From Octopus vulgaris (taxonomy: Eukaryota): a DNA stretch of 64,000 bases. The translations under genes and the position numbers were made by a program. Under the pieces are notes generated by a model, which saw only the letters and a list, made by a program, of their open reading frames with translations, was not told where the DNA came from and searched no databases. Each line of letters begins with the position of its first letter. Positions within the stretch are counted from its first letter, which is position 1. This document shows, piece after piece, positions 1,949 to 63,719 of this stretch. The stretch is from the NCBI GenBank assembly GCA_951406725.2, contig OX597822.1:8246001-8310000 (forward strand), given 5' to 3'.

Positions 1949-2452
1949 CCATATACAGAAAGATAGATTCGAATAGGCCACATATTATATTGAAGGACTT
2001 CAGACAAAAATTATGTCCCCTCATTGATATCATTGTCCCAATCGGCATGAATGTATCTGTCAAAACCTACCACAAATTGACAAGTATAAAGATCTTGAAA
2101 TAGAACTTGGCAAAATTTAAAACCTTAGGACTAAATCAATAGCAAAAGTGGCTGATTGCTACCTAGCTCAGTTAACAGGAAATTCCGATATGTCAGAAAT
2201 TCAAAAGATAGGGCTCGTGAGACCTGCCCAAATGCTACGTAAAATAATGTCTATTCTATCTCAAATGTTAAGATATACTTATAATTTTCGTATGTTTTCT
2301 TAAACATTCTCTAGAACAATACTGTGTACAAAACCGAATATATAGCACCCTAGGCATAACACCAACTTGAACTTCTTTATTGTTGTCTGTTGATGTCTCT
2401 CGTTGAGACTTGGTGTCATCTTGTATAATTACAAAGCAAAAGTCAAGCATAT
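1947..2452 (+). mobile_element. Decayed 3' fragment of R4/Dong-type retrotransposon, family A
   Basis: Aligns by eye to ~5990-6539 (ataggcc..atattgaaggacttcagacaaa; tataaagatcttgaaataga; 3' end aaagcaaaagtcaagcat); flanked by (AAT)n on both sides. Confidence 0.85.
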
Positions 2453-2520
2453 AATAATAATGATAATAATAATACCAATATCAACAACAACAACAATAAT
2501 AATAATAATGATAATAATAA

Positions 2521-2606
<86 letters not shown>

Positions 2607-2608
2607 TA

Positions 2609-2781
2609 GGTGCAGGAGTGGCTGTGTGGGGTAAGTAGCTTGCTAACCAACCACATGGTTCCGGGTTCAGTCCCACTGCGTGACATCTTGGGCAAGTGTC
2701 TTCTGCTATAGCCCCGGGCCGACCAATGCCTTGTGAGTGGATTTGGTAGACGGAAACTGAAAGAAGCCTGTCGTGTATATG

Positions 2782-2816
<35 letters not shown>

Positions 2817-3035
2817 GTGTGTGTTTGTGTTTGTCCCCCTAGCATTGCTTGACCACCGATGCTGGTGTGTTTACGTCCCCGTCACTTAGCGGTTCGGCAA
2901 AAGAGACCGATAGAATAAGTACTGGGCTTACAAAGAATAAGTCCCGGGGTCGATTTGCAGGCTAAAGGTGGTGCTCCAGCATGGCCGCAGTCAAATGACT
3001 GAAACAAGTAAAGAGTAAAGAATAAAAAGTAAAGA

Positions 3036-3037
<2 letters not shown>
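2609..3037 (+). mobile_element. tRNA-derived SINE family A, copy 1
   Basis: tRNA-like head with A/B-box-like motifs (tggctgtgtgg..; ggttcagtccc), internal (TA)n(TG)n, tail of AGTAAAG-like repeats; four copies in window. Confidence 0.9.
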
Positions 3038-3094
<57 letters not shown>

Positions 3095-3095
<1 letters not shown>

Positions 3096-6000
3096 GACAA
3101 GCAATATTGGATAAAATGAACGAAGCTGCAGCTAGAGAAGATAATACAGAGGAAATAATTATAGACCAGCCTAGGGCTGATAAAAACGAAGTGAGGATTG
3201 AAAGAGTTAGTATAAGTGATAGGCAAAGTGAAATACTCTCTGAACCAATCATAAACACTAAGACAGATAAGCATCAAATAGATAAAGAAAGTCACACAAA
3301 TATTGACCCAACAGAACTACATGGGCTAAAAAATCAAATCATGATTGAATGGCTGAAAATTAAAGAAACCAGCATGGATGAACGTGATACACTCCCTAAA
3401 ATCCGCAACTCTAACCAAAACATGAAAATAATTGGTAAAATCCGGCTTGCACTTAAGGCTATAATTTCAGCTAATGATGTTGATATCACAAACCTCAACC
3501 ACCTATACTATGCATCCGCGAAAATCTCAACGATCCTATATGGTGTAAAGATTAGAAAACGGCAACATTCCCACAAAAAGCCTTCTTGGCAAGAGCGTCT
3601 GCAACAACAAATTAAAATATTTAGATCAGACATTGAATATTTGAAAAACCTTAAGGCTCAAAAGACTACCAAACCTACAAAAACCCCCAAATTACTGAAA
3701 AAATATAATATGAAAACTATACTTGATATTGATGCCACCATAGAAACCATCAAACAATAGGTATCTGCCAAAGCTGCCCGCATAGCGAGGTATGAAAAGC
3801 GTGTTAGATTCTTCAAGGACAACAACATGTTCAAAAATAACATCAAGAATTTTTACAGGAAGATAGGAAAAACAACAGTTACTGTAAAGTCTGTACCATC
3901 AAAAGAAGAAGTGCAGGGATTTTGGAATAAAATCTGGGCAGAAGAAAAAACACACAACGAAAAGGCCCTCTGGATTGACAGAATATCTACAGAACTGGAC
4001 CCCATAGAAGAGCAAAAGTGGGAGGGTGTCAAGGTAGAAGATATAAGATCTGCTCTCAGGAGGTCAAGCAAATGGAAGTCTCCAAGGAAGGATAACATTC
4101 CTAACTTCTGGCTGAATGCCTTCCCAGAGAGCCATGAACTGCTAACAGAACTGTACAATGATGTTTTGCAACACCCTAGTAGGATGGCTCCTTGGCTAGT
4201 TAATGGGTTAACATTCCTGCTTCCAAAAAGTGAAGAAACAAAGGAGCCAAAAAAACTATAGACCCATAACCTGCATAACAACTATGTACAAAACGCTAAC
4301 ATCTGTCCAGACGGAATATACCTATAGTTTTTTAACAGACAGCAGCATATTCCCTAATGAACAGAAAGGATGTAAACGTGGATCCTACGGCTGTAAAGAC
4401 CAACTACTCATCAATAAGATGATCTTAGAAGATTGTCACAAACGACACAAAAACTTATCAATAGCCTGTATAGACTATAAAAAGGCTTTTGATAGCCTAC
4501 CACATAGCTGGATTAGGAAATGCCTGGAAATGTATAAGATAGCACCTACTCTGCGAAACTTCTTGACTGTAAGTATGAGATCATGGAGAACCACACTAAC
4601 TCTGAACAGTGACAATGAATCCCTAAATGCTGGTGATGTAAAAATTTCGTGTGGCATTTTCCAGGGTGACTCACTGTCACCACTCCTCTTTTGTTTATCC
4701 TTAATACCTCTCTCAAAGCTGCTCAATGACGCGCAGTACGGGTATAAAATGTTTGATGAAAATATAAATCATCTCATTTACATGGATGATTCAAAGCTTT
4801 TTGCAAAAAATGACCAACAACTCAAGGGCTTACTAGCGATAGTCAAACAATTCAGTGACGACATCAGAATGCAATTCGGCCTCGATAAATGTGCAAAAGC
4901 TACCTTTATCAAAGGAAAAATGGCAGAAACATCTAACGTTAACCTTGACCAGCATAATGTCATAAAAGAACTAGACCCAGCGGAGAGCTACAAGTACCTA
5001 GTGGTACATGAAGGGAACGGAATAAGGCATTCAGAGATGGAGGAAAGGATCAGGAGAGAATGCTATCGAAGAGTGAGAGCAATACTCATGACAGAGCTGA
5101 ATGCAAGAAACAGGATCGAAGCGATCAATGCTTTAGCCATACCAGTCGTAACTTACAGTTTCAATATTATTAACTGGTCAATTACTGAAATATGTCAGCT
5201 CGACAGAAAAATAAGGAAATTGTTGACAATGCATAGAATGCACCACCCTAAGGCAGATACAGAACGACTCTATCTGCCAAGAAAAGAGAAAGGCCGTGGT
5301 CTTTTGCAACTGTCAATAACAATGAAGATTGCTACAATTGGCCTAGACACCTACCTGAAAAACTCTGAGGACTGGATGTTAAAACTTGTCTCAAAACATA
5401 AAAACAAGAAAGCATCATACTCAGTCACAAAACAGGCAAAGGAATATCTAAGTGAATTCCGAATACAACCAATTTCGGAATTAGAGATAGACATACAAGA
5501 AACAAGCACAGAAAAAGCTAGGCGCATGAAAACCCGTGCCAAAAACTGCGGCCTTAGATATTCTGAATAATAAATGGCAAGAAAAACCTCTCTATGGCAA
5601 ATACCCAAAGAGAGCGAATAATGCAGATATCGACAAAGCCCTGACCCGTCAATGGGTAATGGCCTCTGGCTTAAAATCTGAAACAGAGGGGTTTATCATA
5701 GCAGCTCAAGATCAATGCCTACCAACAAGAAACTACCAGGCCAACATATTAAAGAACGGCAGTGTATGCCGACAACAAAATGAAACCATTGATCATGTTG
5801 TCTCCAAATGCAGTCTTCTAGCGCCTACAGAGTACCTCAATAGGCATGATAGAGCTGCACAATATATTTAGTGGGTTACTTGCAAATAACTAGATTTGCC
5901 CCATGAAAAAAACTGGTGGGAACACAATCCACCCCCAGTGCTTGAAAATGACCACATCTCACTCCTCTGGAACTTCACCATTCAAACTGACAGGAGGATA

Positions 6001-6539
6001 GATGCAAATAGGCCAGACATCATATTGAAAGACTTCAGACAAAGAACATGCCTCCTCATTGATATGACTGTCCCAATCGATATAAACGTATCTGTCAAGA
6101 CCTACCAAAAACTGAGCAAATATAAAGATCTTGAAATAGAAATCAGCAAAATGTGGAAGCTGAAGACTAAAACAATACCTGTTGTCATAGGTGCCCTGGG
6201 AATGATAGCGAAAGGGACTGATTGCTACCTAACTCAGATACCAGGAAACCCCAAATGGCAGAAATTCAAAAGATAGTGCTCATGAGAACTGCTCATATCC
6301 TACGCAAAATACTCTCTATGTAATCCCATGGTTTAAAACAAACTTTTTTTAATTTTAATTTTTATTTTTTAAAAATTTTATTTTTATGTATTAGACATTC
6401 ACTAGTACAACACAAAAAGAAACAAAAACAAAAAAAAAAACAAATATATGGCACAGAACTTCCAACCTGTTGTCTCTTGAGGTCTCTGGGTGAAACTTGG
6501 GGCCAACTTGTACAGACATAAAGCAAAAGTCAAACATAG
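3095..6539 (+). mobile_element. R4/Dong-clade non-LTR retrotransposon (RT + CCHC + restriction-like endonuclease), family A, 5'-truncated and disrupted
   Basis: ORF pieces 3107-6276 carry NYRPITC, QKG, DYKKAFDSLPH, GIFQGDSLSPLLF, YMDD, FGLDKC, RLYLPRKEKGRGL, CxxxxETIDHVVSKC, RHD, RPDI..IDMTVP..KYKDL; stops/frameshifts near 3758, 4255, 5540, 5869; ~220 bp 3' UTR then (AAT)n. Confidence 0.95.
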
Positions 6540-6566
<27 letters not shown>

Positions 6567-6571
<5 letters not shown>

Positions 6572-7053
6572 GGTCACAGAAAACGAGAAAGCAACCATAC
6601 TCTGGGATATGCCGATACACACAGATAGAGAAATTAAGGCCAATAGACCAGATATAGTAGTCTGAGATCATGAAGAAAAAAATGCTTTCTAATCGATGTA
6701 TCTATACCGGCAGATGACAACGTGTCTCTAAAAGAAATGGAGAAACTTTCAAAATACAAAGACCTGGAAATAGAGGTACCAGAATGTGGATTCTAAAAAC
6801 AGAAACAATTCCTATCATAGTAGGTGCATTAGGCATGATAAAAAATGTTCAGACAAATACATAACAAAAGCACCAGAACTTACAAACACATATATCATAC
6901 AGAAAATTGTACTACTAGGCACTGCACACATCCTACGCAGAACACTTTCCATACAATAACGATCAGAGCATCATAACAAATCACAGCACATACCCAAGAC
7001 ACACAGAGCTGCGCTCGGTAGTGAAGTGAAAGCACGCTATAAAAATAAAACTA

Positions 7054-7056
<3 letters not shown>
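6567..7056 (+). mobile_element. R4/Dong family B, ~490 bp 5'-truncated copy
   Basis: Near-identical to 8330-8827 (RLE region and 3' UTR ending aaataaaactactg), between (AAT)n tracts. Confidence 0.93.

Positions 7057-7134
<78 letters not shown>
7057..7134 (+). repeat. (AAT)n spacer between R4 copies
   Basis: Perfect AAT run. Confidence 0.98.
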
Positions 7135-7136
<2 letters not shown>

Positions 7137-8824
7137 GGCAAAACGATCAGCCACCTTTTATATATGGATGACCTAAAACTATACGCTGCAAACGACAAAC
7201 AGCTGGAAACACTATTAAAGACAGTTCATGGATTTACCAAAGAAATAGATATGAAATTTGGATTAGAAAAATGCGCCAAAGTAACCATGAAAAGAGGAAA
7301 ACTAGTTAAGAGTAACAACATCACACTAGATAAAACCAATGAAATAAAAGAATTAGACCAAAGCCAAACTTACAAATACTTAGGAATCCATGAACTAGAT
7401 AAGACACAACACACACAAATGAAAGAGAAAATAAAAAAGAATATTATAGACGAGTTAGATCAATACTAAACACAGAGCTCAATGCCAAAAACAAGATAAT
7501 AGGTATCAACACTTTAGCTGTCCCAGTTATAAGTTACAGCTACAATATCCTTAACTGGACACGAAATGAACTGACCAAAATAGACAGGAAAACAAGAAAA
7601 ATAATGACAGGATCTAGGATGCATCACCCACAATCTGACATAGAAAGACTATATATACAACGTATAGAAGGTGGTAGAGGCCTTATACAGCTGGAAAACT
7701 ACTATAAAATAACCACCATAGGACTGCAAAAATATCTACTTCAGAAGGAAGGAAAACTGATCCAGATAGCGGCAAAACACGAGCAAAACAAAAAACTGTT
7801 CTCAGTATTTAAGGAAGCTGACAAATACAAACAAGAAATCATACCACCTAATAAACATGAAGAAGAAGAAGAAGAAGATGAAGAAACAACAAAAACTATA
7901 AAACAAATGAAATCCAAACTAAAAATAGAACAGCAACGAATCATGATAAAACGATGGCAAGAAAAGCCCCTTCATGGTAAATACTGGACTAAACTAAACG
8001 CAAAAGAAATAGACAAAGAAAAATCCCGGCAATGGTTGAGAAGCTCAGGATTGAAAGTTGAAAAACAGAGGAATCTTTAATTGCAGCACAAGACCAAAGC
8101 CTCCCCACCAGAAATTACCAAAAACATGTAATGAAAAGAAATATTACAAGTAACTGCAGAATATGTGGAGATGGACAAGAAACAATAAATCATATTATCT
8201 CTAGCTGCCCAGTCCTGGCTAAGAAGGAATATATTCACAGACATGACAGAGTTGGAACCTACATACATTGGAAGCTATGCCAACATTATGGAATAACAAC
8301 AGAAAAAAGATGGTATAGGCACACACCAGAAAAGGTAACAGAAAACGAGAAAGCAACCATACTCTGGGATATGCCGATACACACAGATAGAGAAATTAAG
8401 GCCAACATACCAGATAGAGTTGTCAGAGACCATGAAGAAAAAAAATGCTTTCTAATTGATGTATTAATACCGGCTGATGACAACGTTTCTCTAAAAGAAA
8501 TGGAGAAACTCTCAAAATACAAAGACCTGGAAATAGAGGTAACTAGAATGTGGAATCTGAAAACAGAAACAATTCCTATCATAGTAGGTGCATTAGGCAT
8601 GATAAAAAAATATTCAGACAAATACATAACAAAAACACCAGGACTTACAAACACATATAACATACAGAAAATTGCACTACTAGGCACTGCACGCATCCTA
8701 CGCAGAACACTTTCCATACAATAACCATCAGAGCATCACAACAAATCACAGCACATACCCAAGGCACACAGAGCTGCGCTCGGTAGTGAAGTGAAAGCAC
8801 GCTATAAAAATAAAAATAAAACTA

Positions 8825-8827
<3 letters not shown>
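7135..8827 (+). mobile_element. R4/Dong family B, 1.7 kb 5'-truncated copy
   Basis: YMDDLKL, FGLEKC, YKYLG, RLYIQRIEGGRGL, CRICGDGQETINHIISSC, RHD, PD..ID..KYKDL; frameshifted ORFs 7164-8724. Confidence 0.95.
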
Positions 8828-8919
<92 letters not shown>

Positions 8920-8948
8920 GAAGAAGAAGAAGAAGAAGAAGAAGAATG

Positions 8949-9019
<71 letters not shown>
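8828..9019 (+). repeat. (AAT)n tract with internal (GAA)n
   Basis: Seen directly. Confidence 0.97.
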
Positions 9020-9020
<1 letters not shown>

Positions 9021-10015
9021 GGGGACGTTTAAGAAAAACACCGGGGGACGTTTAAGATGTAAGAACGATACAACAGAGCTCTGAAATCTATCCACAAACA
9101 TCGAAAACAAGGACATCGTATGAAACCAAAGATTTACTAACAAAGGATTGGACTGTACCCGAGTAAGTAATGCTCATTAACATTTATTTCTATTTTCGAA
9201 ACGAAATGATGTATTTTGCCTCGATATCATCTCCACCTCTAACACAACACATATAAGCATGCGTGGAATATTACGATCAATCAACACCAGATCATCCCCG
9301 ACACCAAACACCATGTACAAAGGAACTACGAAGAAATTAAATACCACCGATATTATTCAACCCAAGAATAACAATCGGGAGGTACGTACCTTAAACTTAT
9401 AACACAAAATGTACGAAAAACTACACGTGCAAAACAATGTGACAACAGAAATGAACGGACCGGTACCCTACGAAAATGACGACCGTCAAAATAATGGGCC
9501 GGACGTTGTTCCTCATGTCCCGCAGATAAAACCCAAAAGACATAAATGGACTTATGAGGAATACATTTCTATCCTACACGCATACTTCACAGCAGTGCTC
9601 TACCCCAAAAATGTAAACACAACAACACATACATATAAAATATGGAAGGAAAATAACGTAAATATAGACTTGGATACAGCAATGAACCCTAATAAAATAG
9701 CTAACGTACGAAGATACATTCTCAAAGCAAAAAAAATATCAGAAATAGAAATCGAACATCTAAAAGAAAAAATACACCAGGGTGCATTAGACATGATAAA
9801 AAAATATTCAGACAAATACATAACAAAAACACCAGGACTTACAAACACATATAACATACAGAAAATTGCACTACTAGGCACTGCACACATCCTACGCAGA
9901 ACACTTTCCATACAATAAACATCAGAGCATCACAACAAATCACAGCACATACCCAAGGCACACAGAGCTGCGCTCGGTAGTGAAGTGAAATCACGATATA
10001 AAAATAAAACTACTG
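9020..10015 (+). mobile_element. Internally deleted R4/Dong family B derivative (putative 5' end fused to 3' end)
   Basis: 9781-10015 matches the last ~235 bp of family B; upstream ORF 9409-9918 has KRHKWTYEE..ILHAYF..YKIWK..NKIANVRRYILK..EIEHLKEKI, resembling the N-terminal motif of R4-clade ORFs, in frame with the family-B C-terminus. Confidence 0.8.
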
Positions 10016-10064
10016 AATGATAATAATAATAATAATAATAATAATGATAATAATAATAATAATA

Positions 10065-10158
<94 letters not shown>

Positions 10159-10186
10159 GGATGATAATGATGATGATAATAATAAA
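10016..10186 (+). repeat. (AAT)n/(GAT)n microsatellite
   Basis: Seen directly. Confidence 0.97.
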
Positions 10187-11555: not shown

Positions 11556-12517
11556 ATCATCCTATTTCTCCATGTTCTCCCTTTGAACAGTCATTGGATA
11601 GTTAATTATCCTATTACATGCCCTAGCAAAATATCAATTTTTCATTTTTGTTGAGGTACAGAATATGATACAACCAATTGAATATAACCAGAATCCATTT
11701 TATTTGCAGTTAATTCGTTTGTTCATATATTTCGCATAGTCATCATTGGACTATAGCGTTAGATACTATGCATTTATTTAAGTCCGTATCTCACTACTTT
11801 CCTTTGAACGCTATTACAATCGGCAATTTTCTTCCCTAGTAGATGTGTGAATTTCTACTAAGTAAGCAATGTAAAATACAAGCAAACCTGATTACTCTTT
11901 TCTATGCTATAACAAGTAACATTTTCCATAATATGAGTAGCTGTTCTCTTAGAAAAATACATTGATGCGATATTAAACGTATTATGTACAGCAATATATA
12001 AATACATCGTTGGAAAGTTGTACACAACATTCATTTAATGTGCTTTCTGGGGCTTCATGTTCGAAATATAAAAATGAAACTATACGTTTATTCCCGTTTA
12101 CTTAATCTCTCCATCATAGAGTTACTCCCACTATGCTATGATTTCACACTTGCTATAAAACCCATTTGCACAATTCTGTACAGATTCAGAGATATACTTA
12201 TTTAGTATATTATTACCCATATAAAAGACATTACATATTTCTCTGAGATACACCATAAGCTGCCGAGATCTAAAATCCCCCTGGTGATAAAGTTAGATAT
12301 TTGTTCTATGACTGCTGAATGGCGAATGCCTGGAACAATATAACAGTATGTCGTACTCTATGGAAAACATCGAACCATGTCAATAATTTGGTAAATAAGT
12401 GAAAATAGTTGTCAAATGTCTTGCAAAAATTTTGTGAAGGTGATTGCGACACAGAAATAAGGAGGTACCAACTCTCCTAAATATAAGCTACAAAATACAA
12501 TTTTATTAAAATATATA

Positions 12518-12904
12518 GGCGTAGGTGTGGCTGTGTGGTAAGTAGCTTGTTTACGAACCACATGGTTCTGGGTTCTGTCCCACTGTGTGGCACCTTGGGC
12601 AAGTGTCTTCTAATATAGCCTCGGTCGGACCAAAGCCTTGTAAGTGGATTTGGTAGACGGAAACTGAAAGAAGCCCGTCGTATTAAAGTATATATATGTG
12701 TGTGTATGTGTGTGTGTATTTGTGTGTCTCTGTTTGTCGTCCCCACATTATTGACAACTGTTGATGGTGTGTTTACGTCCCCGTAACTTAGCGGTTCGGC
12801 AAAAGAGACCAATAGAATAAGTCCTGGGGTCGATTTGCTCGACTAAAGTCGGTGCCCCAGCATGGCCGCAGTCAAATGACTGAAGCAAGTAAAAGAGCAA
12901 AAGA
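12518..12904 (+). mobile_element. SINE family A, copy 2
   Basis: Colinear with 2609-3037. Confidence 0.9.
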
Positions 12905-28911: not shown

Positions 28912-29345
28912 TTAGTCTTATTTTTATCACATGTTGTCATTGCATCACCGAGTACACCTCTGTGTGCCTTGGTTACGTGCTGAGGTTTGCGTTGCTGTTA
29001 TTTTGCTTTTTGCCTAGTAGTACTATTTTCTGTATGCTGTGGAGATTTGTAAGTCCTGGTGATTTAGTTATGTGTCTGTCTGTATATTTTTAATCATACC
29101 TAATGCATATATTATTATAGGGATTTTTCTGCTTTTAGGCTCTACATCCAGGTTATATCTATTTCCAGCTCCTTGTATTTTCAGTGTTCCTCTGTTTCTT
29201 TTAGAGATACATTGTCCTCTGTTGGGATTAATACGTCATCTCGCAGGCATTTTTTCTTGAGTATCGTTGCCTTGTCTTTTTCTGGTATCTTATATGGAAT
29301 ATGCCTTTATCATCTTTTTTTTCTGTTGATATTCCATTGGTATAT
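28912..29345 (-). mobile_element. Old decayed 3' fragment of R4/Dong family B
   Basis: Reverse complement resembles family-B 3' UTR (ccaaggcacacagag..ctcggt..ataaaaataa) and RLE-coding region. Confidence 0.75.
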
Positions 29346-29804: not shown

Positions 29805-30025
29805 CTTACTTTTACTTTACTTTTACCTTTACTTGTTTCAGTCATTTGACTGCGGCCATGCTGGAGCACCGCCTTTAGTCGAGCAAATCGATCCCGGGAC
29901 TTATTCTTTGTAAGCCTAGTACTTATTCTATCGGTCTCTTTTTGCCGAACCGCTAAATGACGGGGACGTAAACACACAAGCATCGGTTGTCAAGCAATGC
30001 TAGGGGGACAAACACAGACACACAA

Positions 30026-30075
<50 letters not shown>

Positions 30076-30251
30076 GTATACATACAAACGACAGACTTCT
30101 TTCAGTTTCCGTCTACCAAATCCACTCACAAGGCTTTGGTCGGCCCGAGGCTATAGTAGAAGACATTCGCCTAAGATGCCACGCAGTGGGACTGAACCCG
30201 GAACCATGTGGTTGGTTAGCAAGCTACTTACCACACAGCCACTCCTGCGCC
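29805..30251 (-). mobile_element. SINE family A, copy 3
   Basis: Reverse complement of 2609-3037. Confidence 0.92.
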
Positions 30252-30728
30252 TATAAGAGACCAAAATTAAAACAAACCCCCCGAACGGGACGCGAATGTT
30301 TTCCCAGGATTACTCATTTACAACTGAATGGACTGGAACCTATAGCAAGGAAGTGCTTTTGTCAAAAGCATAATGCATCACTCGGTCCTGGATTTAATAC
30401 AACGAGATGGCACACACACTACAGGATCACAAGTCTACCGTTCTACCTGATACCTGCCTCTTAATTTAATAATTTTACATTCAATATTGTAAACATTGTC
30501 ATTCTCCAAAAAATTTTATTCCCTTCATCAAAGACAATCACTCGAAATATTGGGCATTTCTGTTACTATCATTGGTGCAATAATCTTAATTGCCCTCATT
30601 AATGTTTTGTTTCCGCTTTCTATTTCTCGGTTTAGCCTAGTACACGCGTTCAATTGTCCGTCTCCATGCATTGTTGCATTGATTTTTTTGTATTTATGTA
30701 TTTATCTTTCGTTCTTGATACGCACGCT

Positions 30729-32698: not shown

Positions 32699-33093
32699 CT
32701 AGCAGTATCGCCCGGCGTTGCTCGGGTTTGTAAGGGAAATAACTATATAAGCATTTTTAGAGATGTAAAGTATAATAGCCATCTCAATATGGCTAACCAC
32801 AAAGAGTGGGGTTACTGTAGCTTTTTATGCTCTGAGATTTAATAATACATTTTTAGAGAGTTACTTCCCTTATATATGCCAAAAATGCATTAAAAATGAG
32901 AAAAATTGATGGTAATTTTTATTTTAAATCGTAGACTCATCGTAGACGCGCGCTAATACCCAGAAGGGCTCGATATGAATCACGACTATAAAATACCCGG
33001 TTTTGGTTAAACTGCACCGCAAAATGTGGGAGTAGTTAGGAATCTAAATCGTAGGAGACAGACAGCACACAACCTTACTTTTATATATAAAGA
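32699..33093 (-). mobile_element. Non-autonomous Helitron, copy 1
   Basis: Minus strand begins A|TCTTTATATATAAAA and ends cccgagcaacgccgggcgatactgCTAG|T (GC hairpin then CTAG), A|T insertion without TSD. Confidence 0.88.
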
Positions 33094-33094
33094 T

Positions 33095-33332
33095 TACTCT
33101 TTTTACTCTTTTTTACTCTTTTTACTTGTTTCAGTCATTTGATTGCGGCCATGCTGGAGCACCGCCTTTAGTCGAGCAAATCGACCCCGGGACTTATTCT
33201 TTGTAAGCCCAGTACTTATTCTATCGGTCTCTTTTGCCGAACTGCTAAGTGACAGGGACGTAAACACACCAGCATCGGTTGTCAAGCAATGCTAGGGGAA
33301 CAAACACAGACACACAAACATATTCACACACA

Positions 33333-33372
<40 letters not shown>

Positions 33373-33532
33373 TACGACAGGTTTCTTTCAGTTTCCGTCT
33401 ACCAAATCCACTCACAAGGCATTGGTCGGCCCGGGGCTATAGCAGAAGACACTTGCCCAAGATGACACGCAGTGGGACTGAACCCGGAACCATGTGGTTG
33501 GTTAGCAAGCTACTTACCAAACAGCCACTCCT
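33095..33532 (-). mobile_element. SINE family A, copy 4
   Basis: Reverse complement of 2609-3037; its tail abuts the Helitron 5' end. Confidence 0.92.
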
Positions 33533-35937: not shown

Positions 35938-38900
35938 TCCTTAAATCCTTAAAAATTGTTTTAGCCCGAAGGCCGCGACCATGCTGGGGCACCACCGCTG
36001 AATGAGCTACACTAATATGTGAATCCACCTCTGATACGTGGCACTTGATCAACAAGGGAATTCAATGCTGCTGCCCGCATCTGCGTCTCCTGTCGTGAGG
36101 TAGGTTCATTTGGGACTCCCGACAAGAAGAGATCCAGTTTAGTTTTAAAGAAACCCACATCCACACCATGTAAGTCTCTCAGGCATTTAGGGAGGATGTT
36201 AAAGAGCTGTGGTCCTCTGAAACCCAAGCTGTTGCAGTATCTGGACCTGTATTTTGATGGTGATGTTGGAATCTTTGGCACCATGTAGTGGCGCCCTGTT
36301 CTGCGGTTAGGGTAACTTTGAATGACAAAGTTTGGGACAAGACCCTCCAGGATTATCCAGATGTATATCACCGCATATCTCTCCCGCCTCCGCTCTAGGG
36401 AGAAGAGGTTTAATAATTTCAGTCTTTCCCAGTAGCTGATATTTTGCATTGAGACTATCTTCTTTGTGTAGAATCTCTGAATTGCTTCGAGTTCTGCTGT
36501 TAGTTTTATATTGTGTGGTGACCATAGTTGGGAGCAGTAGTCCAAGCGGCTGAGGACGAATGCTTTCCAGAGGACCATCAGTGTCTCCTTCTCTCTTGTT
36601 CTGAAAGTTCGGAGAATCCATCCAGCTACCCGTCTGCATTTTATCACCAGATTAGTAATATGCACTCGGAAAGATGCATCATTGCTCATGTCAATGCCCA
36701 GGTCACGCACTGATTTTGACTCAGGGATTGCAATTATTCCTGGGCCAGTGTATCCAGTCTGCACGTCGTTTACCTTTGTGTGCCGGTAGCGCAGGGCCTG
36801 GACCTTACCTGCATTAAACTGCATGTTGTTGTCCTCAGCCCACCTGTATATTGTATCCAACTTCTGTTGCAGTTGCGCAATATTTTCAGTGTTTTGTATT
36901 GTGTGGGAGACTTTTGTGTCATCTGCATAGCTAGCAAGGGTAGCCATCGTAGCAACTGAAGGCATGTCTGAAAGGGCCATTATAAGCAGCAGTGGCTCCA
37001 AGACAGTGCCCTGTGGAACACCGCTTGTTATTTGTTTCCTTGGAGGTGGCTCCTTTGCTTTCAACTGCCTGTCTTCTGTCTTTTAGGAAGTTGTGCAGCC
37101 ACTCTCCAAGTTTTCCGCCTATGCCGAGACCACGCAGTTTCTGACAGATCATACCATGGTCGACTTTATCAATGGCTTTTGCAAAGTCGAGATATATTAC
37201 ATTCACATTTGAGCCATTTAGTAGCTGTTTTAACACCCAGTCATACTGTTGCAGGAGCTGTGTTAGGCAGCTTCTACCTGGTCGAAATCCCTGCTGGGTG
37301 TCAGACAGCAAGTCATTTTCTTCAAGGAACATGATTAGTTTCTTGCGGACTATTCGTTCCATGACTTTGCTGATGTGTGAGGTCAGAGAGATAGGCCTAT
37401 AATTTTTAGCATCTGCTCTGCTACCTCCCTTATGGATAGGGCATATTACCCCCTCTTTCAATTTGACTGGGAGCTTACCACTTGCAAGAAAGCTCTGAAA
37501 AAGAAGCTGTAGCGGTTTTGCAAGGGCCCGTTTGCACGAATTGAGAAGGATCGCTGGAAATCCATCAGGTCCAGCAGCTGAGTTTGTGTCAATGTCATCT
37601 ATGGCGAGTGTGATATAATCATCTTCAATGTTGATGTACTCAATTTTTGCCTCTTTGGCCGCAGGTAAAGTGGCAAAGAATTCTTCTGGGTTGTTTACTT
37701 GCATGTGTCCTAGAGGTGTAGTGAACACACTTTAGAATTGTTCGTTCAGTATTTCACTTATCCTCGTGCGATTTCCTGTGAGAGAGCCATCTTTTTGGAA
37801 GAGAGGTCTTATTCTCTGGTGCACTGTAACTGTCTCTTTGGCAAACTTAAAGGAAGCTTTAGTGTTTGATTTTATATTTTCTATTACCCAAGCTTCTTTA
37901 TCTGCACTCTCCTTTTCATGGGACGATGCAGACTTTTCTCAATTTCCAATAGCATTCTCTCGAGCCGAGACTTCTCACCACATTTGGTGTGCTTGCTCAG
38001 GCGGTTCACAATCCTTGTCCGTCGTCTCATAAGGATCTTCCTTTCTCTAGGGATCCTGTTTTTGTTTTTGCGTGTGCTGGCCCTGCACACAGGGACATAT
38101 TTGTCACATATGGCTTGTATTATGGACATGATGTGTTTGTGTTTCATGTTAATGTCCGGTGTGGAGAGACATTTAGGTCAATCCTGTTTAAGGATCTCTT
38201 TCTCAATCAACTTCCAGTTTGCTTTATGAAAGTTTAAGTTGGAGAGATGGTGGATGCTTCGTATAGGCTGTGTGTCTACGGGGGCTTTTGGTCCATACAT
38301 AGACAGCTCTATTATGTTGTGATCCGAGATCATTGTCGGCATCACTTTAACATTATGGATAATATATTGTTTGTGAAGCAGAGATCCAGTATATTATCAG
38401 TCCTTGTTGGTTGCAGAATTATTTGCTCCATGAAAGAGGCATTTGTGAGATGGAGCAGGGACTCTGCCTGTGCCTGCTGATGGTGCGTCATCCCTGAGAG
38501 CATCTGCCCCCAAGGCCATTCCACATTGGGGAAGTTAAAGTCACCCATGAAGAATACACTGTTTTGTTGTTCAAGGTTGGTGAGGACTTCTATTTTTGTT
38601 AGGCAGTCTTCAAACATGCCTGAGTGATTTGGGGCATCTGGTGGGCGATATGTAGTACATATGACAATATTCAGTTGTCTTATGTGTACAATTTGAGTGT
38701 CATATACTGAGTTTGAATATGACAACAGGACCTGGGGCGTGAGGTCATCTCGGATGTACATTGCAACTCCACCATGGCTCTTTCCTTTTCTATCTGAGCG
38801 TAAGACTGCATATTGCGGCATGTGTATTTCTGCATCTCCTATATCGGGTCCAAGATGAGTTTCTGTGAGTGTCATGCATATAGCTTGATTGCATGTCACA

Positions 38901-39009
38901 AGGTCTCTCAGGAATGGGATTTTCCTTTTACAGTTTCCGCGCAGCAGCCCTCCTACGTTCAGTAGAAATATTTTTGTGGTGTGTGTGTTGCTGTTGGTGT
39001 TGGTGCACC
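35938..39009 (-). mobile_element. CR1/L2-group LINE, ORF2 (APE + RT) region, frameshifted, apparently lacking ORF1
   Basis: LTETHL, GGVAMY, YRPP, GDFN, LDLCF (APE); GPDGFP, NYRPISLTS, QQGFRPGRSC, YLDFAKAIDKVDH, GVPQG, YADDTK, YWERLKLLNLFSLERRR (RT); short 3' UTR ending in TTAAGGA-type repeats; TA-rich flanks. Confidence 0.95.
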
Positions 39010-39412
39010 TATATCTGTGTATATAACTATATCTATATATATAAATAAAATATCTGAAAACTTGTTAATACACTTAAAGATATTATTTACTTCCGTAGAT
39101 GTATTATTTAGGCACATACGCAGTATATAGTGAAACTAATCATAATATTAAATTCATATATATAAGTAAAAAATTCGATTCAAAATACTCCTAGAATTCC
39201 TGTCTTCTAAATACAGGGGAAAAGTCAAATTATATCTTTCAATACACTAGCTTAATTATTTATTGATATCAAAGACTTGTCATCGGTTATTGGTATGTTG
39301 AAAATAAAACATCGTATAATTATCATAGTTGACAGTTAAAAATAATTAGGCATCTATTCTGCGATAATTGCTTATCGTCAGTCAATTCATTCCTGATCTA
39401 GAATCTATAGGG

Positions 39413-62589: not shown

Positions 62590-63719
62590 GAAATTAAAAA
62601 AGGAAAATACGCACACTTACATAATTTTAATATAATTTTTGATATATCGACTGGTTTCGCTATCGCTATTCATGATATTATGTTTTACTTATTTGAATAT
62701 GTATCTTTTTTTAAGAAGAAAGTTTGTCCCCATTGTGTGTGATGATATTCACGAGTGAATGACTTCACAAGTAGCTAAATAAAGGGAGGTAAATAGTTAT
62801 CGTTATTATTGTTATTGTTGTGGGTAAGGGAAATAACTCTTCAGCTTTCGGTAATGGGAGGGGAATATATATGTGTACAGACAAAGACAAGTTTCGAAAA
62901 CCTTGTTTAATGAGGGGATTTATGTACAGTGATGTAATCGTGAACTGAAATATGTAAAAATATAAAAGTTGGTTATGCGTGCATATTAAGACGTGTTCTA
63001 TATTTTTCAATGAAAAAAGTTTATTTAAACGTCCAAGTGGAGGGATTGTGTCTTTGCACTGGTAGAAGGGGAAGACTGTGAAATTTGGTTTGATGTTATC
63101 TGCACATTTTTCTATGTGTTCACTGAGAGGAAGTTGTCTGTATTGCGGGAAACGGACTTGCTCTTTCTGTAGAGTGGTTCCCTTTCTCAAGCTCATACTC
63201 GTTTGTCCAATATAGCTGTGTCTACAACTCGAGCAGGTTATTACACAAATTAGGTTCTCAGAGGCACAAGTGAAATTAGTTTTAATTGTGCACCTCTGTC
63301 CTTGTTTGAAAAGGAAATCCGAGCCTTCAAGCATGTTGGGGCATGTTCCATAGTTTGGGCGTCCACATTTTTCAGCCGTTGGTTTCGTGGTTGTTTTGCA
63401 AAGCTTCGCATTTGTTAGTAGTCCCTTTAGCGATTTGTCTTGTTCTTTGCATTTGATGAGTTTGTGTGTTGTCAGGATGTCGTTCATTTTTCGATCTCTA
63501 GTTAGTAAAGGAAGAGTTTGCACAATAGTGTTGAACGCCTCACTGTTTCTGAGGTTGTGTATTGATATAAATAGTAATGTTTTGAGTTGAGGTGTGGTGT
63601 TATGTTTTGTTGTTCCTAGTGTTATTGCGTCTAATTGTTTGGCACGTTTAATCCCCTCATCGATAAGTTAGGGTGGATATTGTCTTTCAATAAGCGTTGT
63701 TTTGAGGTATTGAAGACAA
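62590..63719 (-). mobile_element. Penelope-like element 3' part (RT thumb/linker + GIY-YIG endonuclease), decayed, 5'-truncated at (TA)n
   Basis: CGRPNYGTCP, FTCASENLICVITCSSCRHSYIGQT..LR..EH; degenerate hammerhead downstream at 62644-62678. Confidence 0.9.
62644..62678 (-). ncRNA. Degenerate minimal hammerhead at the Penelope 3' end
   Basis: Minus strand atatc ATGAATA gc gata gc GAAA ccag TC gatat; 5-bp stem I, GUC triplet, mutated core. Confidence 0.5.

Follow-up and report, generated by a model that had tools for sequence, protein, structure and literature searches.

A single-copy, internally deleted R4/Dong-type LINE in an AAT array of Octopus vulgaris, possibly shortened during its own insertion

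The 996-bp unit and its surroundings

In a window of 64,000 nucleotides from Octopus vulgaris (contig OX597822.1, positions 8,246,001 to 8,310,000), a unit of 996 bp (9020-10015) lies between two AAT tracts, which had been described in an earlier note on this DNA and which we place at 8804-9019 and 10016-10117. The unit is composed of a 5' part and a 3' part of a transposable element, and the locus as a whole is a tandem stack of copies of the same family (Table 1). The last 235 bp of the unit match the 3' ends of both upstream copies (226/232 and 222/234 aligned bases identical), and their assignment to the 3' end of this family, called family B in the earlier note, was thus correct. The sequence upstream of the junction had been regarded as unique; this is true within the window, but elsewhere in the genome it recurs as the family's 5' end. 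Both ends of the element are indeed kept, as had been claimed, with the whole 5' UTR and the whole 3' UTR present. The deleted span of ~3.1 kb corresponds to the middle three-quarters of the element and includes the reverse transcriptase (RT), the CCHC motif and the core of the PD-D-K endonuclease; the reported loss of RT and of most of the endonuclease is hence evident, and Pfam detected no RT in the 169-aa ORF of the unit.

Table 1. Features of the deleted copy and its neighbors, in positions of the window
Feature	Position	Strand	Remark
5'-truncated neighboring copy, same family and orientation	6568-7056	+	element positions 3632-4122
5'-truncated neighboring copy, same family and orientation	7134-8818	+	element positions 2438-4119
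(AAT)n tract with short (AAG)n patch	8804-9019	+	3' tail of the upstream family-B copy; insertion target of the 996-bp unit
5' part of the element, with the 5' UTR and the beginning of the ORF	9020-9781	+	positions 1-764 of the L052 element, 97.4% identity
Tandem pair of the ~20-nt 5'-terminal element unit	9020-9058	+	same in many full-length siblings
Start of the parent frame	9259-9402	+	first ATG 9259, second 9313; private TAA 9400-9402 after 47 codons
Residual 169-aa fusion ORF	9409-9918	+	124 codons of the N-terminal region and the last 45 parent codons
Myb/SANT-like three-helix domain of R4/Dong ORFs	9535-9780	+	private Arg-to-Tyr in the conserved W-T-R-E-E-Y motif
Deletion junction	9780-9782	+	element position 764 joined to 3888; 3.1 kb lost; 1-nt G overlap; single-copy
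3' part of the element	9781-10015	+	positions 3888-4122; 97.9% to L052; last 45 codons, stop 9916-9918, ~100-nt 3' UTR
3' flank, (AAT)n tract followed by (ATG)n	10016-10185	+	

Several other features were noted in the window. Pieces of a second family, of the same type and diverged (1947-2450 and 3096-6539, with an RT at 4212-5570 carrying stops and frameshifts), lie head to tail in the same AAT array, the two pieces being ~70% alike, and a diverged (79%) 3' fragment related to the first family is found on the opposite strand (29011-29255, minus). A dispersed SINE-like repeat of ~430 bp occurs in four copies with 81-90% identity (2604-3057, 12513-12901, 29806-30255 and 33075-33532), and 36012-39064 (minus) holds a broken LINE that belongs to a different class and has RT and an APE-type endonuclease (Pfam RVT_1 and Exo_endo_phos). 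A stop-free frame of 300 aa at 62765-63667 (minus) has no Pfam match.

The parent element and the residual ORF

The parent is a TAA-targeting R4/Dong-type LINE of ~4.1 kb, the copy closest to the window unit being L052 (4122 nt). When the genome was searched with the 5' 761 bases, all 40 scored loci (the best 40 of 1856 candidates) were covered over nearly the full length, and the 39 loci besides the window copy were 94-97% identical to the query. The same 3' piece was found downstream in 16 of the 20 fetched loci bearing the 5' part, mostly 3.0-3.2 kb further on, and the 5' and 3' parts therefore come from one family. The alignment of the 5' part with the full-length family, proposed in the earlier note, agrees with this (Table 1).

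In the translation of L052, a single ORF contains RT, then CCHC, then the PD-D-K motif of a restriction-like endonuclease, and no APE. The best PDB matches of this RT are R2 RTs (E 1e-25), and the CCHC and PD-D-K motifs are present in 68/69 and 66/69 of the long database homologues, respectively. The N-terminal region holds a helical domain that is conserved in database homologues and has no zinc fingers. In its structure model, three helices are predicted at H51-66, H73-84 and H96-108 with pLDDT of 87-98. This model was matched to the Zeste DNA-binding domain (Z 6.0, rmsd 2.8, 67 residues aligned; a middling Z, with a winged-helix match tying for first), to TRF1 (Z 5.2, rmsd 2.0, 50 aligned; again middling, with winged-helix domains scoring equally) and to a DMAP1 domain (Z within the middling range of 5-6), while the Atlas lead was the Rap1 Myb (0.85) and Foldseek gave no match at E <=0.001. 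The predicted fold supports the N-terminal piece as the helical Myb/SANT-like domain of the family, in line with the earlier remark that the upstream peptide resembles the R4 N-terminal helical motif.

The assignment to R4/Dong is a match of the feature description, namely the ORF layout, the Myb/SANT-like domain and the (TAA)n target; no sequence named R4 or Dong was among the homologues returned by our search, and tblastn against phages gave no match. An AAT tract was found upstream in 94/101 and downstream in 84/86 of the census copies described below. R4/Dong elements with a Myb/SANT-like domain and (TAA)n targeting have been described in molluscs (PMC7998251), and Dong-R4 is reported as a large, recently active group of LINEs in O. 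vulgaris (PMC13282606). Dong elements of the R4 clade thus share with the parent the single ORF, the N-terminal Myb/SANT-like domain, the RT, the CCHC motif, the restriction-like endonuclease, the insertion into (TAA)n and the lack of an N-terminal zinc finger, whereas the window copy differs from them by the 3.1 kb that it has lost. An HDV-like 5' ribozyme is reported for Dong of Bombyx mori (PMC3774820), but none was detected in the octopus family: Rfam gave no match for a 5' ribozyme at E up to 1, and a purpose-built HDV-like descriptor, which had no positive control, found nothing in 6 copies. The folds of the UTRs gave no signal of RNA structure, with z of 0.73 (5') and -1.29 (3').

The family is divided into at least three subfamilies, which split near element positions ~860-990 (in the numbering of L052), and the window copy is a member of a small cluster with L052. 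In the N-terminal linker, an in-frame stretch of ~120 nt is missing from the commonest subfamily, which is also the youngest (~0.35% rare letters). Stop-free frames of more than 1100 aa are kept by 4/196 copies (L257, L242, L230 and L147; 1136-1225 aa), which is consistent with recent activity of the family. We also noticed that a 5'-terminal unit of ~20-22 nt is tandemly repeated before many full-length copies (e.g., L061, L066 and L146); by motif count, at least two units precede 25/101 census copies, with a maximum of eight, and they perhaps reflect repeated restarting at the RNA's 5' terminus.

As to the fusion ORF, its reported extent was reproduced: 169 aa from the ATG, in frame over the junction (KEKIHQ/GALDMIKKY) and ending at the stop of the family. 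In the window copy, nonetheless, T at 9400 makes a TAA that cuts the parent frame just upstream, and the 169-aa ORF is thus a remnant behind a private stop; C is found at this position in 16/16 full-length copies and in every putative RNA contig covering the site, and T in 0/102 other copies. Reinitiation may occur six bases downstream of the private stop. Within the ORF, furthermore, Tyr privately replaces Arg in the Myb-like motif, where 46/56 homologues have R or K, and Asp replaces Gly in the GALG motif of the 3' part, where 84/85 homologues have G; further private changes include Ile to Val and two silent ones. From the majority of its nearest relatives the window copy differs at 14 positions in 716 nt, to be compared with 7-21 for ten full-length relatives. 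In-frame joins occurred at the rate expected by chance, in 4/14 large deletions of our first census, and the in-frame fusion is therefore a one-in-three coincidence of frame; L145 (879 nt), for example, is an in-frame near twin of the window copy with other breakpoints. Given the private TAA, the private changes at conserved residues and the chance rate of in-frame joins, we do not retain the proposal that the unit encodes a small competitor protein, and nothing suggests selection on the fusion peptide.

Copy number of the junction and census of deleted copies

In the genome of 2.8 Gb (227 contigs), a gapped 20-nt pattern of the junction had one match, as did the junction 30-mer with up to three mismatches, and a 96-nt query was spanned only by the window locus among the best 40 of 803 candidates. 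The undeleted continuation of the parent at the same 5' break, in contrast, had 1179 exact matches. Three sibling junctions were also searched genome-wide, and each had a clear match at its own locus only; the first had one extra match with two mismatches resembling the 3' sequence of the parent, the second none besides its own locus, and the third three partial matches of 86-87%. Since the first 5' probe (101 matches) turned out to be subfamily-specific, a shared probe (968 matches) was used in its place. Exact 20-mers along the element numbered 968 near the 5' end, 1179 at 758, 2382 at 2011 and 8770 at 3991; this climb toward the 3' end is the usual gradient of 5' truncation and indicates no surplus of 5' ends.

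Our census comprises 192 5'-intact copies, the window copy included, which were taken from 100 listed matches of the subfamily-specific 5' probe, 100 listed matches of the shared probe on contig C1 and a few others, and is hence not a random sample. Dropped were L151 (mis-anchored), L176 (with the layout of L175, likely a segmental duplicate), L194 (no anchor), and L185 and L197, both of which came from another probe and the former of which is not 5'-intact. The 3' end was reached by 175/192 copies and was not within the fetched stretch in 17/192.

Deletions of at least 400 nt were found in 26/192 copies, each with a different junction; even L162 and L268, whose breaks are no more than 15 nt apart on either side, belong to different subfamilies and have different letters at the junction, and were counted as independent. 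L213 contains a filler of AAT and could represent two copies; it was kept among the 26. Copies with both ends and shorter than 2.6 kb numbered 14/192 including the window copy, 10 being shorter than 1.4 kb, and 8/101 in the sample across subfamilies on C1. The window unit therefore belongs to a population of one-off copies that arose independently. When smaller deletions are included, sizes run continuously from tens of bases up to 3.9 kb, single copies can have several deletions, and short overlaps and fillers occur; overlap lengths in the analysis of the 26 deletions are unreliable near substitutions, also at the window locus, the overlap of which was taken from a separate alignment. A recurring gap at 867/984 (27 rows) was examined as a candidate for a short internally deleted element (SIDE) and rejected, because it is the ~120-nt in-frame difference between subfamilies.

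The breakpoints of these 26 deletions are clustered. Deletions of at least 2.5 kb amount to 10/26 versus a fraction of 0.171 expected under uniform breaks (p 0.008), 3' breaks at or beyond 3650 to 12/26 versus 0.227 (p 0.007), and in 10 of the latter 12 copies the 5' break falls no later than 1201 (KS p 0.003), where the cut-offs of 3650, 2500 and 1201 are post hoc. In the short copies with both ends, the 5' breaks cluster at 0.5-1.2 kb. Ordinary 5'-truncated copies start at or beyond 3650 in 14/29 cases, in a sample conditioned on reaching 3888. Inverted repeats pairing both break zones were searched for and none was found, and in the main texts of the literature we found no report of breakpoint clustering of this kind.

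Origin of the deletion

The window copy is very probably ordinary debris, that is, a one-off that is dead and has not spread. How it lost its middle is less certain, and we read it, with a probability of about one half, as a decaying copy, present once, of an abundant R4/Dong-type LINE that targets TAA microsatellites, the copy having lost 3.1 kb of its interior in the course of its own insertion. The RT of the element, primed in an AAT tract, would have started at the 3' end of a full-length RNA, copied ~235 nt, stopped early and then resumed on the 5' part of the same RNA; the copy has no RT and has left no descendants. The clustering of the 3' breaks in the ordinary truncation zone and of the 5' breaks at 0.5-1.2 kb hints at such jumps of RT during insertion. 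Template jumps of the R2 RT and internally deleted L1 insertions have been described (PMC3414825), and junctions of truncated R1 and R2 copies are reported to have short overlaps or extra bases (PMC2718515). Also in favor of an origin at insertion, the 5' and 3' parts are concordant in subfamily in the six informative short copies, the other eight, including the window copy, being ambiguous or uninformative and none clearly discordant. Against it, the ages of the copies lean to deletion after insertion, and several copies have two or three separate deletions, as would result from decay at the DNA level. The 1-nt overlap at the junction, as read from the assembly, fits either route.

A serious competitor, which we hold to be possible though we do not favor it, is a normal full-length insertion from which 3.1 kb disappeared afterwards, when a double-strand break was repaired by end joining; the result would be an equally dead one-off. 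Deleted copies indeed tend to be older, with medians of 2.0% versus 1.5% rare letters (n of 11 versus 84, p 0.014); compared subfamily by subfamily, short copies had the greater age in one case (p 0.034) and not in two others (p 0.18 and 0.96). The continuum of deletion sizes with its overlaps, fillers and multiple deletions per copy is also as repair would leave it, as are the copies in which the 3' end was not reached. A precedent is Hebe of Adineta vaga, copies of which were inactivated by microhomology deletions (PMC2861651); like the cited internally deleted L1 (PMC3414825), Hebe resembles the octopus copies in unique junctions with short or no microhomology, inactivation and the lack of a derived family. 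The deletions reported for Hebe are, however, of 12-200 bp, while those in the Dong family reach 2.6-3.9 kb and have clustered breakpoints. For Drosophila SIDEs, Eickbush and Eickbush considered DNA recombination the likelier origin (PMC3414825).

Deletions by repair are expected to become rarer with size. In our census, to the contrary, very large deletions are over-represented, and the 3' breaks lie in the usual stopping zone of RT.

It is improbable that the unit is a chimera, in which a short 5'-truncated newcomer was fused into an older, 3'-deleted copy, or a mis-join of the assembly. The tandem stack of family copies at the locus would provide for it, and a short newcomer would likewise put the 3' breaks in the truncation zone. 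Contigs were further compared from 8 sequencing runs, probably of other individuals (4 DNA-type and 4 putative RNA, none of the matching runs listed being on record as RNA); the parent continuation at 9781 was present in 8/8 runs, and no contig bridging the junction was among those listed. Both parts of the unit are nonetheless equally near L052 (97.4% and 97.9%), a rare 3' letter found in 2/98 copies is common to the window copy and L052, its nearest 5' relative, the subfamily is concordant in the informative siblings, and thirteen analogous short copies exist elsewhere.

The earlier note had proposed a propagating, non-autonomous SIDE family mobilized in trans, and had named a unique junction as the outcome that would speak against it; the junction is present once in 2.8 Gb. 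That the window copy is a founder or member of such a family is therefore very unlikely, even though both ends are retained with the whole 5' and 3' UTRs and intact-looking partners exist in the four copies with long stop-free frames. There is one copy only despite ~2% private divergence, 5' ends are not in excess, no junction recurs in 192 copies, and the three sibling junctions are each confined to their own locus. The unit does share with known SIDEs, namely those of R2 and R2/R1 in Drosophila (PMC3414825) and Persaeus from CR1 Zenon (PMC6740152), the joining of the ends of a non-LTR element across an internal deletion and, with neither RT nor endonuclease, the non-autonomous state. Those SIDEs are nonetheless described as multi-copy, old, diverged from their partners and reduced to RNA signals (the ends of R2Dwi_SIDE are 64% and 81% identical to the partner, PMC3414825, and Persaeus is present in 12 to 115,283 copies, PMC6740152), whereas the window copy is single, 97% identical to the parent and still carries decaying remnants of the ORF; the term SIDE is therefore not applied to it here. 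No SIDE derived from Dong or R4 was found in the main texts of the literature.

Finally, a retrocopy of a cryptically spliced element RNA, which the earlier note had considered on the correct observation that the parent reads TAG followed by GTGCATT at the 3' break (as parent copies usually do, with AG directly before the break), can practically be dismissed, because at the 5' break CACCAGG is followed by AAAATG in 16/16 parents and the removed stretch is thus AA..AG or, in the other register of the single G overlap, GA..TA, with no GT or GC donor in either, 0/11 exactly refined junctions (of the 26) are GT/GC-AG, and 4/4 putative RNA runs continue unspliced at 9781.

The locus itself has little weight, being one dead copy among thousands. 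What remains as a lead, and as a hint only, is the family-wide excess of short copies with both ends and clustered breakpoints. SIDEs of non-LTR elements are described as rare, while short copies with both ends are common here and an amplified family was not found, which suggests that the barrier lies at mobilization in trans and not at formation. If the clustering holds genome-wide, these copies would have recorded in nature the template jumping of an R4-clade RT, a point that bears on R2-type enzymes used for gene insertion.

A broader proposal, which we regard as doubtful but worth stating, is that SIDE-shaped insertions are a routine by-product of the Dong family's own mechanism. About 8% of the 5'-intact copies (8/101 on C1; ~75 per genome by extrapolation) would then have arisen independently by the end-to-end joining of 0.5-1.2 kb from the 5' side of the RNA to 0.1-0.5 kb from its 3' side, with RT jumping between the two ends of a broken or partly degraded RNA that the protein keeps together, and none of them would amplify. 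If so, the absence of amplification would point to a strong cis preference, and genome data alone would show which RNA ends are protected by the protein in an R4-clade particle.

Two minor observations on full-length and truncated siblings may be added. L175 and L176 (G000:C19:24.54-24.56 Mb) are a full-length pair 18 kb apart with the same layout and likely represent a segmental duplication. An internal (GAA)n stretch at element positions ~3163-3189 varies in length among the copies, and the 5'-truncated copies L035 and L049 start directly after the GAA run.
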